DNA from: Clostridia bacterium | Lineage (GTDB): Bacteria; Bacillota; Clostridia; Oscillospirales; CAG-272 | Reading direction: 5' to 3' | Assembly (NCBI GenBank): GCA_017501545.1 | Contig: JAFVWS010000044.1 | Coordinates: 10,240 to 74,239 of the forward strand | Length of the DNA: 64,000 bases | Shown: one piece after another, positions 29,301 to 34,038 of the stretch | Position numbering within the stretch: position 1 is the first letter of the stretch | Layout: every line of letters begins with the position of its first letter | Translations under genes and position numbers: made by a program | Notes under the pieces: model-generated | Told to the model about the DNA's origin: nothing | Seen by the model: only the letters and a program-made list of their open reading frames with translations | Databases searched by the model: none

Positions 29301-30635
29301 GGTAAGCTTTCACTTTCTTGTGGAAATGCTGTTATGGGCCCTGTTTCAATCACATGCACAGTAAATGGCAATGACGCTGGAGAAGTAGTTCTCGGTGGTG
29401 AAGCACTTGTTCTTGACCTTAAGTCAGGCGATAAGGTTGTTATCACAGTAACAGCATCAGGCTATGCAACATTAAATGCAGCCTGGGCAGGTGAGTCCAG
29501 CACAGGCAATGCTACACTTAATATGGGTAACACCTCAATTGAGGCTGCTGACGCAACATACGAGTATACAGCAAGCGCTGATGAAACTCTTGTTCTTTCG
29601 GTAGGTACAGCTGTTATGGGCCCTGTTACTGTAACATATTCAGTTAACGGTGGCGATGCAGTTACACTTGAGGCTAACGTTCCTGCAAACGTTGCACTTA
29701 CAGCAGGTGATAAGCTTGTAGTATCAGTAACAGCTACTGGTTATGCTACACTTGCAGTAACAGTTGCAGGTGGTGAGGCTGAAGAAGAGAAGAATGTGCT
29801 TGTTGTAGGTGAAAACACAGTAGTTATTGGTGAAGACCAAATAACCGATGGTGTTGATTATGAATTTACAGCAGGCGTTGAAGGTAACTATACAGTAACA
29901 GGTGACCTTCTTGCTATCTTCTTTGATGAAAACGGAACAAGACTTGGTGCTGGCATGGTTTCTCTTTCTGCTAACCAAAAGGTAACAGTTAAATTTGTTA
30001 ATATGGCAGAAGAGGCTGGCACATTCACAGTAACAGTAGTTGCTCCTTCAGCTGAAGAGGAAGAGCCAGAAGAGCCAGAGGTTGTAGACCCACAAGCTGA
30101 GCTTAAGGGACTTCTTAGCAACTACACATACAAGATTGGCGATTATAGCGTAGGCTTAACACAAAACTGGGAAACAGGCGTTTACTACATTAACGTAACA
30201 GATGCCGACTGGACAATAGACCTTGGCTTTACATATGAGCTAACAGATAATGGAGATGGCACATTTACAATTATAAACCTTGCAAGTTACGATATGGGAT
30301 ATGCTAGCGGTGCTGATCAAGTGGACGCTGTAAAGGCAGCTGTTGAGGGACAAAAGATTTCTGCTAATCTTACAAACAATGCTGTAAGAGGTTCTTATCA
30401 ACTTAATGGCTATCAATTAGGCTTGTCACGTAATACAGAAACAGGTGCATATGAGGCTAACATTTCTGATGACAGCATGACAACAGACCTTTACTTCACA
30501 TATGTAGCAACAGAAAATGAAGATGGTACATTCACAATCGCTCTTACTTACACACAAGTAGATTGGGAAGTTGGTTCAGACAAGGTTGAATCACTCCTTG
30601 CTATGGATTGGGTAGTAACTTTAGCAGCTGAATAA
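26340..30635 (+). CDS. 1431-aa modular surface lipoprotein
   Basis: Lipobox LASC, three His/Cys/DxxxDG repeats at the N-terminus, duplicated beta-rich modules and acidic linkers. Confidence 0.82.
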   Translation: MKRKLALILCVVAAIAMIFTLASCGEEKCEHTYSADWSSDENGHWNAATCGCEGEISNYGIHADEKTLGEDGKLTAGKDGLCDTCSYKLCEEHKYATEWSTNETNHWNAATCGCDVKDNDAKHVDENKDGNCDECKYVICDHSPVDAWSSDETYHWKETDCEDCNVDVALKGEHADENEDGRCDTCGYVTSFDYVLKSVIEGLDSEAWFGVNSSVVLENGEETFTKVFDNYTVVKDAFGNTKYYSYYGENDANLFVVYETDYGTFRNLDAEEIEGVAAYEIVFYKVVATNHEDMIKGLYRLAMNGSVDGDGEQDGYSYGLVNTIDEEAGKYSFKFLFTIYESAYEVSVEFEVDAEANAVKSATITIDLYDLADVTIDEENLTYTVNEDAEAISTKYEATQTFGDPMSSEEAPNPHPASKYIIDDLKFVNEDTNEEIEEGDVVEILAGYENKLNLVLSEDLLDLADFQLFEVTTELTKGGMNYPFSLYGNTAGEFAVEISNGLDTLSFTIKVSYVAPQTMSTFAINVDSGTGTSESEVTMYNGQSLMVNAVVSQGCDPTFTAEVTVGKDAAVLAKNEIGTYTFKPLMAGDYEIELTSSVASDVTATLKVTVIDPPTIEEVLDGEYEGTSANNWIDINAEFGAESTVVITLDGEIRSWDNETMTQVTTDVSGTATYTYVYNEETGALALTKTEGDDLIVEEVYVENYKVVVKLTNDFPCKLEKVVEEPETPAGSATESPIKVTMTNAYTYCYDYAFTFVAGEAGTYTFTVPVGFGVFSQKEYDAYGNPYVDFQMDQGGTFTLDLDAGESVALLFGSKEAKEYELAFTYSASQGGGDVDEPDTPASGSGTQADPFIITESGNYVADYVGGGWTVFTWYQYTATADGNVVFTYTGNGTYWLSYGTNPDALDGVGSTAVGGVYTIPVTAGDVLFLAVQEYNGTACEIPFTIELPGAGAGEDEEPETTGTALTIGNNNIEGTDITYTYTADADGKLSLSCGNAVMGPVSITCTVNGNDAGEVVLGGEALVLDLKSGDKVVITVTASGYATLNAAWAGESSTGNATLNMGNTSIEAADATYEYTASADETLVLSVGTAVMGPVTVTYSVNGGDAVTLEANVPANVALTAGDKLVVSVTATGYATLAVTVAGGEAEEEKNVLVVGENTVVIGEDQITDGVDYEFTAGVEGNYTVTGDLLAIFFDENGTRLGAGMVSLSANQKVTVKFVNMAEEAGTFTVTVVAPSAEEEEPEEPEVVDPQAELKGLLSNYTYKIGDYSVGLTQNWETGVYYINVTDADWTIDLGFTYELTDNGDGTFTIINLASYDMGYASGADQVDAVKAAVEGQKISANLTNNAVRGSYQLNGYQLGLSRNTETGAYEANISDDSMTTDLYFTYVATENEDGTFTIALTYTQVDWEVGSDKVESLLAMDWVVTLAAE

Positions 30636-30689
30636 TCAGTCGTTTAAGGAAATATCCTAAAACAATAAAAAAAGACACACCGAGGCAAT

Positions 30690-31039
30690 GGGTGATGTTC
30701 TTAGCGGAGAATTTGAAAAATACCGCTAAGTGCGAGCATCGCATTTGACTAGTCAAATACTTTATGGGCTAAGCCCAAACCCATATTACAAGCAGAAAGA
30801 GAGAACAAAACGGGGTAATCCGTAATGTCCTCTCTTTTCTGTTAGTGAAGTTTTCGCTACCGCGAAAGTGAAGTTGCTATGCAGTGAAGTTTGTGCTACG
30901 CACAAGTGAAGTTAAGTTTGCCCGCTTTGCCGAAGGCAAAACTTCACTATCCGTAGGATAACTTCACTTACGTAGTAAACTTCACTTGCCCGTAAGGGCA
31001 AACTTAGTTATGCGTGATACTCCGTTAAGAGTATCACGC
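30690..31039 (+). repeat. 'Comb' repeat element copy 3 (core AGTGAAGTT/AACTTCACT)
   Basis: AGTGAAGTT at 30844, 30867, 30883 and 30905; AACTTCACT at 30940, 30960 and 30978. Identical 28-nt hairpin at 31012-31039. The left end is an 18/23 inverted match to the right end. Confidence 0.85.
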
Positions 31040-31109
31040 AAACTCGGTGTGTTTTTATTTTCCTTGAGGAAAAGCTGTCGCTGTGCGACTGATGAGAAAT
31101 CAGAAAGCA

Positions 31110-31185
31110 TGTCACTCTGGAGCCTTGCGATAGAGTCTATATAAAGAGATTCTATCACTGCGCCTTGCTTCGTTCCAGAATGACA
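31110..31185. repeat. REP-like palindromic element (TGTCACTCTGGA...TCCAGAATGACA)
   Basis: 11/12 inverted termini and an inner GATAGAGTCT/AGATTCTATC stem. Confidence 0.6.
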
Positions 31186-31200
31186 ATTAGTGAAATAAAA

Positions 31201-31223
31201 AGGGGAGGCATATTGCCTCCCCT
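31201..31223 (-). terminator. Intrinsic terminator following the displaced kinase 3' end
   Basis: AGGGGAGGCA-tat-TGCCTCCCCT with a TTTTATTT tail on the minus strand. Confidence 0.8.
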
Positions 31224-31228
31224 ATAAA

Positions 31229-31390
31229 TTATTTATCATTTTCATCCCTTTGGGTTTTAAACTCAAACCAGAAGGTAAAGCCCTTGCCAAGCTCGCTGGA
31301 AACTCCAAAGCGTGAGCCGTGAAGGAGAAGAATGTTTTTTACAATGGATAGACCCAGCCCAGTGCCAAGCACAGCACGCTTATGCACCTT
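31229..31390 (-). pseudogene. Orphan 3' fragment of the histidine kinase gene
   Basis: 31257-31390 matches 31950-32083 ungapped at 126/134. Encodes KVHKRAVLG...KGFTFWFEFKTQRDENDK* with its own stop. Confidence 0.85.
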
Positions 31391-31787
31391 TATAGCCTCC
31401 ATCTGTCGAGGGAGGTGTCAACGGAGTTGACGGAGGGAGAGTGCTTTTAATTAATGCGTCAATATATATGCAAACGCCGTTGAAATTTTTATCAATTAAA
31501 TAGTTTGGAATCCTAATAACGGATAAATCCAATTCTTCAAGATCTTTTGTTCTTTCAGCGTCTTTAAGTAATTGCATTTCAGTATAATGTCCACTTCCGT
31601 CAAGCTCAATAACAAGCTTGGCCTTTGCGCAGTAAAAGTCTACAATATAATTGCCTAAAGGTTTTTGTCTTTGAAATCGAATAGGGTAACTTCTTAAAAA
31701 ATCATACCAAAGATGCTTTTCGTGACGTGTCATATTTTTACGGAGCTCTTTGGCAAGCGGAATGTTTGCTTTATTATAAGTCTTCAT
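31380..31787 (-). CDS. DUF559 (Vsr-like) endonuclease
   Basis: AKELRKNMT..E..LW..LR...F.RQ.P.G.YIVDFYC..AKLVIELDGSGH signature. The RBS (GAGGGAG) lies within the upstream repeat. Confidence 0.9.
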   Translation of the reverse strand: MKTYNKANIPLAKELRKNMTRHEKHLWYDFLRSYPIRFQRQKPLGNYIVDFYCAKAKLVIELDGSGHYTEMQLLKDAERTKDLEELDLSVIRIPNYLIDKNFNGVCIYIDALIKSTLPPSTPLTPPSTDGGYKGA

Positions 31788-31920
31788 AATCTCTCCCTCA
31801 GTTTCACAGGTGAAACAGCTCCCTCGTCAGAGGGAGCCTTAATTATTCCTCAATCTTAAACTCAAACCGAACAGCCTCCATCTGTCGAGGGAGGTGTCAA
31901 CGGAGTTGACGGAGGGAGAG
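31395..31920. mobile_element. REP-bounded DUF559 cassette (three 47-48 bp repeats)
   Basis: 31395-31441 and 31874-31920 are identical; 31791-31838 is an inverted, diverged, structure-preserving copy. Mobility is inferred, not shown. Confidence 0.65.
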
Positions 31921-31924
31921 AAAA

Positions 31925-33352
31925 TCAAATCTTTTCAGTTCTCTCAATCTTAAACTCAAACCAGAAGGTAGAGCCCTTGCCAAGCTCACTGGAAACTCCA
32001 AAGCGTGAGCCGTGAAGGAGCAGAATGTTTTTTACAATAGAAAGTCCAAGACCAGTGCCAAGCACAGCACGCTTATGCACCTTGTCAACCTTGTAGTATC
32101 TATCCCAAATAAGAGGCAAATCCTCCTCGCTAATGCCCTCGCCAGTGTCGATGACTGACACCCTTACAACGTCGTCTAAAAGCTCCTCACGCACGGTTAT
32201 AAGCTTGTCATCGCCAGTATAGTTAATGGCATTATTAATTAGGTTGTAAATCACCTGCAAAAGCCTTGTTTCGTCGGCGTTTACAAATATTTCCTCGCCT
32301 GCTTTTTCAAATACAATGTTATATTCCTTATGCTCAAGTAGCTTTTCGTACCTTTTTACCGTGTCAGAAATTGCCCTTGTAAGAGAAATTGTCTTAGGCT
32401 CAATGGTATGTGCGCCGGATTGTAGCTTGGAAACGGTGAGCAGGTCGTTTACAAGGGAGTTTAGCCTTGCAGTTTCATCAATGATAACCTGCATATTTTC
32501 AGGAGTATTTTCCTCGGGGAAGTCACGCATAACCTCACTATATCCAGAAATTAGTGTAAGAGGCGTGCGCAAATCGTGCGAGATATTTGCAATAAGCTCC
32601 TTTTGCGTTGTATCAAGCTTTTTAAGCTCGGAAACGGCTGTGTTTAGTGCAGAGGCAAGCTCCTCAATTTCGCGTGGACCCTTCTCGTCAAATTTAACGT
32701 CGTAGTCGTAAAGGGAAAGTGACTTTGCCTTTTTGCCCATTGAAGAAATTGGGGCAGAGATGTTTCTTGCGATAACAAATGACATAAGCACCGAAATTAA
32801 AATGGCAAAAATTAGCATAAATATAAGCAGAGTGTTAAATGCCATTTTTGTAATTGGCGGTGGGTTAATGTTTGCATTTAAGACAATTAGGTGCGTTGGT
32901 GCACCCTCATCACCACTGCCAGCTAACATAACGTAAATTAGCTCGCTATCAAGCTTGGTTTTATAGGTTAAGTCCTCACTTTCCATAGCAAGGGCGCGCC
33001 ATTCGTTTAAGCGTGCGTCGTTTTCAAAATATCCGTCCGAAACAATAGATGGGTCGCTGATAAATATGTCCTTAGGCACCCCGTCTATATCAAAAACCGC
33101 AATAGCAATATCGTGTCTATACTCGTTTCCTAAGCCCTCAAGAAAGCCTTCAAGGTCATCTCTTTCAACATTGTGAGAAATTTCCTTGGCAAGCCTCTCA
33201 GATGAGGACGTCTTTACAATCTCGTAAACTGAGCGTAAAAGAAGTGATTCAAACGCCCAAATAAACACAATCAAAACAAGGCAAAGAGCAAGCATTGATA
33301 TAAAAATGCGAGTACGAATAGACGGACGGCGATTATCGTTTCTTTTTATCAT
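31925..33352 (-). CDS. HAMP-domain sensor histidine kinase
   Basis: ANISHDLRTPLT, NLINNAINYT, DTGEGI and GTGLGLSIVK; two TM helices. Confidence 0.95.
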   Translation of the reverse strand: MIKRNDNRRPSIRTRIFISMLALCLVLIVFIWAFESLLLRSVYEIVKTSSSERLAKEISHNVERDDLEGFLEGLGNEYRHDIAIAVFDIDGVPKDIFISDPSIVSDGYFENDARLNEWRALAMESEDLTYKTKLDSELIYVMLAGSGDEGAPTHLIVLNANINPPPITKMAFNTLLIFMLIFAILISVLMSFVIARNISAPISSMGKKAKSLSLYDYDVKFDEKGPREIEELASALNTAVSELKKLDTTQKELIANISHDLRTPLTLISGYSEVMRDFPEENTPENMQVIIDETARLNSLVNDLLTVSKLQSGAHTIEPKTISLTRAISDTVKRYEKLLEHKEYNIVFEKAGEEIFVNADETRLLQVIYNLINNAINYTGDDKLITVREELLDDVVRVSVIDTGEGISEEDLPLIWDRYYKVDKVHKRAVLGTGLGLSIVKNILLLHGSRFGVSSELGKGSTFWFEFKIERTEKI

Positions 33353-34038
33353 TTTTCCTCAAAGCGATAGCCCATACCGCGAATGGTAACAATAAAATTA
33401 CTGTATTTACCAAGGCTTTTTCTAAGAATTTTGATGTGGGTGTCAAGGGTACGGTCATCACCAAAGAAGTCGTAGCCCCAAACGTCAGAAAGAAGCTTAT
33501 CACGAGAAAGAGCAATGTTTTTGTTTTTAAGCATATAGAAAAACAGCTCATATTCCTTTGGTGACATATCAATTCTTTCACCATCAATATAAACAATACG
33601 TGCGGTTAAGTCGGCAACTAAGCCACCACCAGCAAGGGAGATAATCTCGTTTTTTTGCTCCTCGGTCTTTTGAGCCCCCCTTGTTCTTTTCATGATAGCC
33701 TCAACGCGAAGCATAAGCTCCTTTGGGGAAAATGGCTTAACAACGTAGTCGTCAATGCCGATTTCAAAGCCGTTTATCTTGTCGTATTCCTCACCGCGCG
33801 CAGATAGCATAATAATAGGAACGTCACTGTTTTCTCTTATCTTACGGCTGGCAGAAAAGCCATCAAGCTCTGGCATCATAATATCCATAATAACAATATC
33901 GAACTTATCCCTTGCAAACTTAGCCACTGCGTCCATGCCGTCAGTTGCCTCAGTAACAGTATGCCCCTCAAATTCAGCATACTTGCGAATGAGCTTTCTT
34001 ATCATTTCCTCATCGTCAACTATTAAAATATTGTACAT
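33349..34038 (-). CDS. OmpR/PhoB family response regulator
   Basis: LIVDDE, DIMMPELDG, DDYVVKPFS and RTLDTHIKILRK. Confidence 0.96.
   Translation of the reverse strand: MYNILIVDDEEMIRKLIRKYAEFEGHTVTEATDGMDAVAKFARDKFDIVIMDIMMPELDGFSASRKIRENSDVPIIMLSARGEEYDKINGFEIGIDDYVVKPFSPKELMLRVEAIMKRTRGAQKTEEQKNEIISLAGGGLVADLTARIVYIDGERIDMSPKEYELFFYMLKNKNIALSRDKLLSDVWGYDFFGDDRTLDTHIKILRKSLGKYSNFIVTIRGMGYRFEEK

Follow-up and report, generated by a model that had tools for sequence, protein, structure and literature searches.

What is a nuclease gene doing at the very end of a histidine-kinase gene, framed by hairpin repeats and followed by a second copy of the kinase gene's own 3′ end? The question is raised by a 64,000-nucleotide stretch of a Clostridia bacterium (GenBank assembly GCA_017501545.1, contig JAFVWS010000044.1, positions 10,240 to 74,239 of the forward strand; hereafter the window), where a gene of the DUF559 family lies between two inverted repeat units. 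An initial annotation, made from the letters alone, had described this as a minimal cassette in which the nuclease is wired into its flanking repeats, and that description now extends well beyond the window: nearly every DUF559 gene among the relatives has the same left unit carrying its Shine-Dalgarno sequence and the same right unit encoding its tail. We conclude that such cassettes are very probably a mobile, selfish family of about 0.5 kb, spread class-wide among uncultured gut Clostridia. We further favor, with a probability of roughly 0.6, the reading that they resemble the repetitive extragenic palindromic (REP) sequences and their REP-associated tyrosine transposases (RAYTs), with an unrelated enzyme, the nuclease, as the driver.

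The anatomy of the locus, all of it on the minus strand of a 1.86-Mb genome and read here from 33352 down to 31190, is given in Table 1. The left unit consists of an outer hairpin (GGCTCCCTC/GAGGGAGCT), an inner hairpin (GTTTCAC/GTGAAAC) and a G-rich tail (TGAGGGAGAG), and this tail is the Shine-Dalgarno sequence of the nuclease gene: it lies 3 nt 5′ of the start codon (31785-31787), the unit ending GAGGGAGAG-att-ATG. At the other end, the reading frame crosses the right unit, where it is translated as ..LPPSTPLTPPSTDGG, and reaches its TAA (31380-31382) inside the displaced kinase fragment; residues ~1-112 of the protein are the nuclease body and the rest, including the last ~20 codons, is repeat-encoded. 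The right unit is of a “beta” flavor (GCCTCC..GGAGGT, tail GGAGGG), and its inner hairpin (GTCAAC/GTTGAC) differs from that of the left unit, yet both pair. All of these features, namely the ribosome-binding site drawn from the upstream repeat, the frame running through the downstream repeat and the inverted units with their compensated inner hairpins, had been pointed out in the initial annotation and are as described there. Such unlike ends recur, in that 19 of 23 cassettes combine one alpha and one beta flavor or two inner-hairpin types.

Table 1. Features of the kinase-DUF559 locus, listed in the direction in which the locus is read (window coordinates)
Feature	Coordinates	Strand	Remarks
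Response regulator gene	33349-34038	-	partner of the downstream histidine kinase
Histidine-kinase host gene, 475 amino acids	31925-33352	-	Pfam HAMP/HisKA/HATPase_c
Replacement copy (v1) of the last ~150 nt of the kinase gene, used as coding 3′ end	31932-32083	-	direct repeat D1
Solo right-end repeat unit, second layer	31873-31920	-	48/48 match to the cassette's right end, direct orientation
20-nt duplicated kinase segment GGTTTGAGTTTAAGATTGAG plus GAATAA	31843-31868	-	31849-31868 identical to 31943-31962
Left terminal unit	31791-31839	-	reads AGGCTCCCTCTGACGAGGGAGCTGTTTCACCTGTGAAACTGAGGGAGAG; covariance model 43 bits
DUF559 / Vsr-like PD-(D/E)xK nuclease gene, 135 amino acids	31380-31787	-	Pfam DUF559 E=1e-26
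Right terminal unit, inverted relative to left unit	31394-31441	-	covariance model 68 bits
Displaced native kinase 3′ end, 162 nt (..KVHKRAV...FEFKTQRDENDK, stop)	31229-31390	-	Pfam HATPase_c match on the fragment
Native intrinsic terminator of the kinase operon	31193-31223	-	now 3′ of the whole stack

The present 3′ end of the kinase gene (..FEFKIERTEKI, stop) is non-native. The replacement copy that serves as this end and the displaced copy (31239-31390) are 89% identical, and the displaced fragment starts immediately past the right unit, at the junction GGAGGCTATA/AAGGTG. A third copy of the repeat, which the initial annotation had not mentioned, is the solo unit, whose 48 nt (CTCTCCCTCCGTCAACTCCGTTGACACCTCCCTCGACAGATGGAGGCT) occur again as the right end of the cassette. 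Between it and the left unit lies an earlier C-terminus of the kinase (..FEFKIEE, stop) that the solo repeat has displaced; its counterpart in strains with a single layer is the live kinase end, ..KIER followed by stop.

Within the species this site is polymorphic. Among conspecific metagenome contigs, taken as those encoding an identical response regulator, four states were found. In the empty state (L068, L071, L073) the kinase ends ..FEFKTERVENDK and stop, the operon terminator abuts that stop codon, and there is no repeat in 8.7 kb. The one-layer state (S1; L065, L067, L070) reads ..KIER and stop, TTA, left unit, DUF559, right unit, ATA, the displaced 152-nt native end and the terminator. 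The two-layer state (S2; the window, L066, L069) adds the solo right unit, missing in the one-layer strains and bracketed by the 20-nt duplication GGTTTGAGTTTAAGATTGAG. The three-layer state (S3; L052) retains this unit and has a further solo unit in the displaced fragment, bracketed by a 19-nt duplication (TTCTGGTTTGAGTTTAAAA). Empty and filled strains thus differ by presence or absence of the homing type, at one site and with an intact empty allele. Because the empty-site strains have the displaced fragment as their live end, that fragment is the species' own kinase end. The live end ..KIER and the outer hairpin of the left unit, in contrast, match the kinase end and the hairpin that follows it in two other species (G006, G016), the hairpin being identical.

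A cluster of seven synonymous differences defines two alleles, which are shuffled among strains between the two copies of the kinase end (v1 and v2) and differently placed in each state: in S1 the live copy is resident and the displaced copy foreign, in the window's S2 the live copy is foreign and the displaced copy a hybrid, and in S3 both copies are resident. This distribution indicates that the two kinase-end copies exchange sequence by recombination or conversion. Recombination between the duplicated ends would also delete the cassette cleanly, leaving an intact kinase. A diversity-generating retroelement was considered as the source of the copies and set aside, since the differences fall on synonymous third positions rather than being adenine-specific and the copies swap alleles between strains. 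Integration of a circle by a Campbell-type event fits the one-layer allele pattern and yet is unneeded, because a donor already bearing the duplication gives the same result by double crossover. Related species are occupied at the same site as well, by a solo unit with a 24-52-nt duplication (G016, G019, G015), by a cassette with a 66-nt duplication (G001), by the S1 junction (G010) or by the S2 architecture (G004). Both G000 and G004 have a solo unit identical to the right unit of the same genome, even though the units of the two species differ at four positions, which points to concerted evolution or to repeated copying.

The association of nuclease gene and repeat holds across the class. 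Among 29 DUF559 genes of relatives, ~26 have a left unit 3-12 nt before the start codon and ~27 an inverted right unit over the last codons (the covariance model described below detects fewer of these on its own, owing to insertions), and the same layout is found at 11 loci of other Clostridia families. At least five repeats occur in all 31 DUF559-positive genomes of a set of 61 relatives, compared with 7 of the 30 negative ones (Fisher p=5e-11; Spearman rho 0.83), and in 6/6 positive versus 1/18 negative genomes when one genome is taken per other family (p=5e-5). The initial annotation had proposed to quantify this association across Clostridia, and in an even sample of 150 genomes the outcome was positive: each of the 20 with DUF559 has at least three repeats, whereas only 13 of the 130 without it have any and 117 have none. 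Copies of DUF559 number 0-9 per genome and are patchily distributed, and near-identical nucleases in different families point to horizontal transfer. Nuclease lineage and repeat type diverge together: on a tree of nuclease bodies, the repeat types CCTCCCT../GGAGGGA and CCTTCCCC../GGATGAGG switch once, and none of 500 shuffles was as low. In the literature mentioning DUF559 we found no description of repeat-flanked DUF559 cassettes; the nearest published mention is a table row that places DUF559 among gene families enriched at predicted inversion sites (PMC9881135), an enrichment that the inverted ends of the cassette would explain.

The repeat is a structured family and not a product of chance. 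A covariance model (R1), built with a hand-written structure from 14 copies of equal architecture, finds 42 copies in the window genome against 2 DUF559 genes, and the 61 genomes together contain 1037 repeats against 83 DUF559 genes (~12:1). Across 84 copies from the window genome and its relatives, 97.5% of stem cells are paired, compared with 55-66% when the partners are slid, and both hairpins covary, with changes on both sides in 13 of 14 stem pairs. Each unit is built of two hairpins, the outer one C-rich/G-rich and the inner one variable, and of a G-rich tail whose sequence mirrors the G arm of the outer hairpin. When purine-motif triads are scored (G with G.C, A or T with A.T, T opposite a C.G inversion), 92.6% of positions are triad-compatible in the mirror register, compared with 40-48% in slid registers; the tail could therefore potentially form an intrastrand triplex, as in the BoxC and TMECO repeats discussed below. 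No Rfam family matches the repeats, the sole match being to a neighboring Gut-1 motif. One position of the outer hairpin stands apart from the other stem positions, which are almost always Watson-Crick: columns 9/55 of alignment A4 are T:G in 16/76 copies and otherwise non-standard in 10/76. A T:G pair in its own hairpin could be a recognition feature for a Vsr-like enzyme.

The protein belongs to DUF559, as the initial annotation had recognized in calling it a Vsr-like PD-(D/E)xK nuclease. Its Pfam score (PF04480) is 93.4 bits, where the curated cut-off is 20.6, and its match to NCBIfam PRK09767 (E=2e-17) lies under that model's equivalog cut-off; PADLOC and NCBIfam searches returned nothing further on the cassette. 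DUF559 is the sole domain found, and there is no HUH Y1 transposase of the IS200/IS605 TnpA-like type. The closest solved relative by sequence is PDB 3HRL (E=2e-12), and an AlphaFold model (pLDDT 75) matches both this structure and the catalytic domain of the homing endonuclease I-Bth0305I (3R3P; TM-score 0.80 on target), with a weaker match to Vsr (1VSR). The predicted model has a restriction-endonuclease-like fold with a conserved acidic/histidine core, and across 25 sequences no change is seen at D50, E61, D63, H67, R79 or R92. Purifying selection acts on the nuclease: the ratio of nonsynonymous to synonymous rates (dN/dS) is 0.06-0.15 when the four species with a copy at the kinase locus are compared. 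At least 8000 homologues occur in metagenomes; among the top 120, coverage of the query is 77-100%, and 96-100% for most, and the repeat-encoded tail SLPQSAsLTAPSSEGA is present in all 24 aligned homologues drawn from these 120.

With regard to expression, 28 of 37 cassettes lie behind a co-oriented open reading frame (ORF) that ends within 260 nt, and the window cassette has no convincing promoter of its own. Cassettes situated just behind a co-oriented host gene, or in its last codons, are probably expressed by read-through. Where a cassette lacks a flanking duplication, its right unit has an outer hairpin with a T-run behind it that should work as a terminator. As a generic explanation of the outer hairpin, terminator function was tested and found no support, a T-run being present behind just 1 of 15 such hairpins in the genome.

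Direct duplications of the flanking DNA accompany a portion of the cassettes. With repeats masked, the flanking duplications of 13 of 36 cassettes surpass the 99th percentile of mismatched-flank controls, compared with an expectation of 0.4 cassettes; these duplications measure 19-152 bp, some 100% identical and others allelic. Comparison of an empty species (G006) with a filled one (G016) gives a 24-nt duplication, and comparison of L052 with the window gives one of 19 nt. There is no short target-site duplication of fixed length, as in classical insertion sequences or miniature inverted-repeat transposable elements (MITEs), and the range of lengths, together with the many cassettes in which no duplication is seen, led us to reject pure transposition of that kind. 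Such variation in length speaks against a fixed staggered cut and favors copying during repair or replication. Gene-less arrays (C34, C7, C11, C21) likewise copy a piece of the neighboring gene's end with each unit. Gene-less solo units, MITE-like pairs of a left and a right unit, and tandem arrays are probably derivatives of the cassette.

Several individual loci illustrate the variety of these arrangements. At C34:131300-131700, four tandem 97-nt units, each composed of a ~49-nt gene-end variant (..RDILEEYKNR, stop) and a right-type repeat, stand without a nuclease gene; the orthologous gene end in G015 and G016 (L018, L019) carries a full DUF559 cassette. The 3′ ends of rubrerythrin-like genes (..ARHGKAFEGLLNRYFKK, stop) are a second hot spot (C18:114500-122200; L021): in C18, MITE-like left and right units lie 29 nt apart beside displaced rubrerythrin end fragments, and in G020 (L021) three synonymous versions of the rubrerythrin end are stacked around a DUF559 cassette. 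The second DUF559 gene of the window genome (C21:38500-39244, C43:100-200; L001), 56% identical to the first and associated with type-2 repeats, is flanked on both sides by tandem arrays in which each unit includes a piece of the gene. On one side the left unit and the first 21 nt of the ORF occur together three times; on the other the ORF's final 30 nt and the right unit do so as well, these 3′-end copies differing only synonymously. In G004, two DUF559 copies (L084 and L085; C3:77100-78700 and C9:135200-136800) are 92% identical over a shared block of 611 nt, and no younger pair within one genome was seen. They represent a differently organized sub-lineage, with an extended -10 promoter of their own (TGTGATATAAT), no left unit, and a left-right pair fused to the 3′ end of the gene.

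How might such a cassette spread? We infer that DUF559 is the driving enzyme, and that it would nick or cut at its own structured ends or at the target. Spread would then proceed by repair or replication copying, be it template switching, homing-like gene conversion, or break-induced synthesis that stops at a hairpin, and later homologous recombination between lineages would reshuffle the copies. Duplications of variable length, hitch-hiking gene ends, identical repeats within a locus and the later reshuffling would all follow from copying of the proposed kind. At the kinase gene, the cassette may have carried in a replacement kinase end, with the native 152-nt end displaced downstream; the solo copy of the right unit upstream of the cassette, together with the 20-nt duplication, may stem from a later event.

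A number of observations weigh against this reading, or at least temper it. Many repeats occur without DUF559 in G178, G196 and G207 (10 to >40 repeats) and also in G005, G007 and G026, which shows that they can persist, and perhaps spread, without the nuclease. Two thirds of the cassettes have no long duplication, and duplication boundaries have no common motif, the left-end junction being merely A-rich. Copies within a genome are mostly old (≤80% DNA identity, with best pairs at 94% and 90%), and the copy at the kinase locus is ancient, with a synonymous divergence (dS) of ~1 across four species, so movement must be rare. The allele pattern at that locus is reachable by ordinary homologous recombination from a donor already carrying the duplication. 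The covariation that supports a triplex comes from few sub-lineages, and descent rather than structure could explain it. A further caution is a DUF559 protein of Caulobacter whose behavior is that of a chromosomal Vsr-like nuclease (PMC12907096).

It is therefore important to consider what else could produce these patterns. The repeats could be an independent MITE- or REP-like family, spread by another enzyme or by host recombination, with DUF559 as a free-standing homing-endonuclease gene that enters the middle of such repeats, so that what appear to be the ends of the cassette would be a split target and not part of the element. In favor of this, gene-less left-right pairs with 29 nt between them exist (C18:118560-118690), the fold is closest to that of a true homing endonuclease, and several genomes have repeats without DUF559 while DUF559 never occurs without repeats. 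We nonetheless regard this as unlikely, given that 117 of the 130 DUF559-negative Clostridia have no repeat at all, that Shine-Dalgarno sequence and last codons are repeat-built in every lineage, that repeat type and nuclease clade co-diverge, and that no other candidate enzyme gene was seen between or beside repeats in the window genome. It is also conceivable that all of the rearrangements result from replication stalling and recombination at structure-prone repeats, with DUF559 as a hitch-hiking ORF. TMECO-type triplex repeats have been linked to local genome instability with no mobility gene near them (Holder 2015, PMC4666352), gene-less tandem arrays with co-duplicated flanks exist (C34, C20, C7, C11), and the shuffling of alleles at the kinase locus needs homologous recombination only. 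A neutral ORF, however, would not hold a dN/dS of ~0.1 and invariant catalytic-type residues across thousands of homologues, nor would it track repeat type or the presence of repeats across the class, and we consider a mere passenger to be improbable.

Strong purifying selection, and persistence over a long time at one locus in four species, would equally suit a gene with a housekeeping function, that is, a Vsr-type nickase of structures or mismatches (T:G, or the triplex or hairpin of the repeat), whose linkage to the repeats would reflect regulation or proximity to its substrate. The frequency of T:G or other non-standard pairs at one stem position lends itself to this explanation. So does the DUF559 protein VsrA of Caulobacter, which acts on DNA in vivo and represents a chromosomal Vsr-like nuclease tied to cytosine methylation (PMC12907096). 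Yet a search for a C5-cytosine methyltransferase as partner in Vsr-type repair detected none in the window genome, which argues against a Caulobacter-like role here. Presence and absence inside one species, a patchy copy number of 0-9 per genome, near-identical genes in different families, and cassettes that interrupt gene ends and leave debris also make a host function hard to sustain, and we give it little credence. The selfish cassette with the nuclease as its driver is the reading we carry forward.

It is informative to compare this cassette with known systems, among which it is classed as a selfish system made of an enzyme plus its own repeat. As in REP/REPIN-RAYT systems, a single small enzyme gene lies between inverted copies of a hairpin repeat that is far commoner in the genome than the gene itself, repeats and gene co-occur, and enzyme lineage matches repeat type. 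The analogy with REP/RAYT pairs drawn in the initial annotation therefore stands with respect to repeat excess, co-occurrence and co-divergence, whereas its further suggestion, that the nuclease mobilizes the repeats, keeps the conditional form in which we present it above. In contrast to those systems, the enzyme here is Vsr-like PD-(D/E)xK rather than an HUH/Y1 transposase; the ribosome-binding site and C-terminal codons lie within the repeats; several diverged copies per genome are possible; and there are within-species polymorphism, family-crossing cassettes and long target duplications. The predicted model also shares its catalytic fold with the Vsr-like (EDxHD) homing endonucleases (I-Bth0305I, PDB 3R3P; Taylor 2011, PMC3239194), which belong to the same Pfam clan as DUF559 (PMC3424549), and selfish presence or absence at a fixed site in a host gene recalls the free-standing homing genes of “fractured genes” (Dassa 2009, PMC2677866). 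Unlike EDxHD homing genes, the cassette has no intron, intein or phage setting (Rfam finds no intron in 30500-32500, and the DUF559 gene lies behind a stop codon in a bacterial chromosome), and its protein lacks a long N-terminal domain for DNA binding. The cassette ends in structured repeats, its gene-less derivatives are numerous, and its insertion leaves a duplicated, displaced gene end rather than a clean co-conversion. Integrative elements that supply a replacement 3′ end at attachment sites in tRNA or protein genes likewise keep the host gene intact by providing it with a new end, displace the old end and stack with successive arrivals; however, the cassette has no integrase, totals 0.5 kb, and has duplications of 19-152 bp that are absent in most cases.

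The BoxC/PIT/TMECO repeats (Holder 2015, PMC4666352) share with the units described here a C-block, a G-block and a mirror G-block in one strand, as well as an intergenic, multicopy and patchy distribution between close strains and a link to local rearrangement. The TMECO consensus, CCCTCNCCC N3-6 GGGNGAGGG N3 GGGNGAGGG, has a second loop of 3 nt (PMC4666352), whereas the second loop here is a covarying hairpin of 15-17 nt, and the exact consensus has 0 matches in the window genome. No associated gene has been reported for TMECO; here, a nuclease gene lies between two units. This invites the wider speculation, which we offer tentatively and as the weaker bet, that DUF559 is the missing enzyme behind triplex- or hairpin-forming repeats of the BoxC/PIT/TMECO type across bacterial phyla. 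A minimal PD-(D/E)xK nickase would recognize the folded ends on either side of its gene, be they triplex or cruciform, and breakage at these ends would drive repair-templated copying of the cassette and of solo ends behind host genes, yielding long, variable target duplications and stacks of displaced gene ends. The setting of the DUF559 gene ycjD in Escherichia coli K-12 (L089; NC_000913 1351000-1351900) suggests that the partnership of DUF559 and repeats extends beyond Clostridia. There, a long hairpin ending ..ATGAGGTG covers the GTG start, a displaced near-copy of the gene's own last 38 nt lies behind a C/G-block repeat (CCCTCTCCC..GAGGGGG), and an exact TMECO/BoxC motif is found 167 nt downstream (L089 4206-4240).

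To our knowledge, DUF559 is a large protein family without a known role, and we know of no source for the BoxC/PIT/TMECO-type repeats, which have lacked one for decades. Both would gain a testable function from a nuclease gene that forms part of such repeats. The cassette family would also explain recurring annotation trouble in gut Clostridia, namely proteins with odd Pro/Ser/Gly-rich tails, fragmented assemblies and pseudo-duplicated gene ends, and would show how small elements can occupy the ends of essential genes without breaking them. If the wider speculation were true, it would amount to a transposition-like lifestyle without a transposase, integrase, intron or intein. The present analysis contributes the empty and layered alleles within a species, the target duplications, the class-wide statistics and the test of triplex register.

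One further element is present close to the locus. A gene-less element that includes the Gut-1 motif of Rfam (53 bits; 30936-31010, minus strand) occupies 30675-31052, where it sits in the loop of a terminator hairpin (CACACCGAGTTGCCTCGGTGTG). It is present in L066 and L069, and the hairpin is intact in L065, L067, L068, L070 and L052; from this split across strains, the element is polymorphic independently of the DUF559 cassette.

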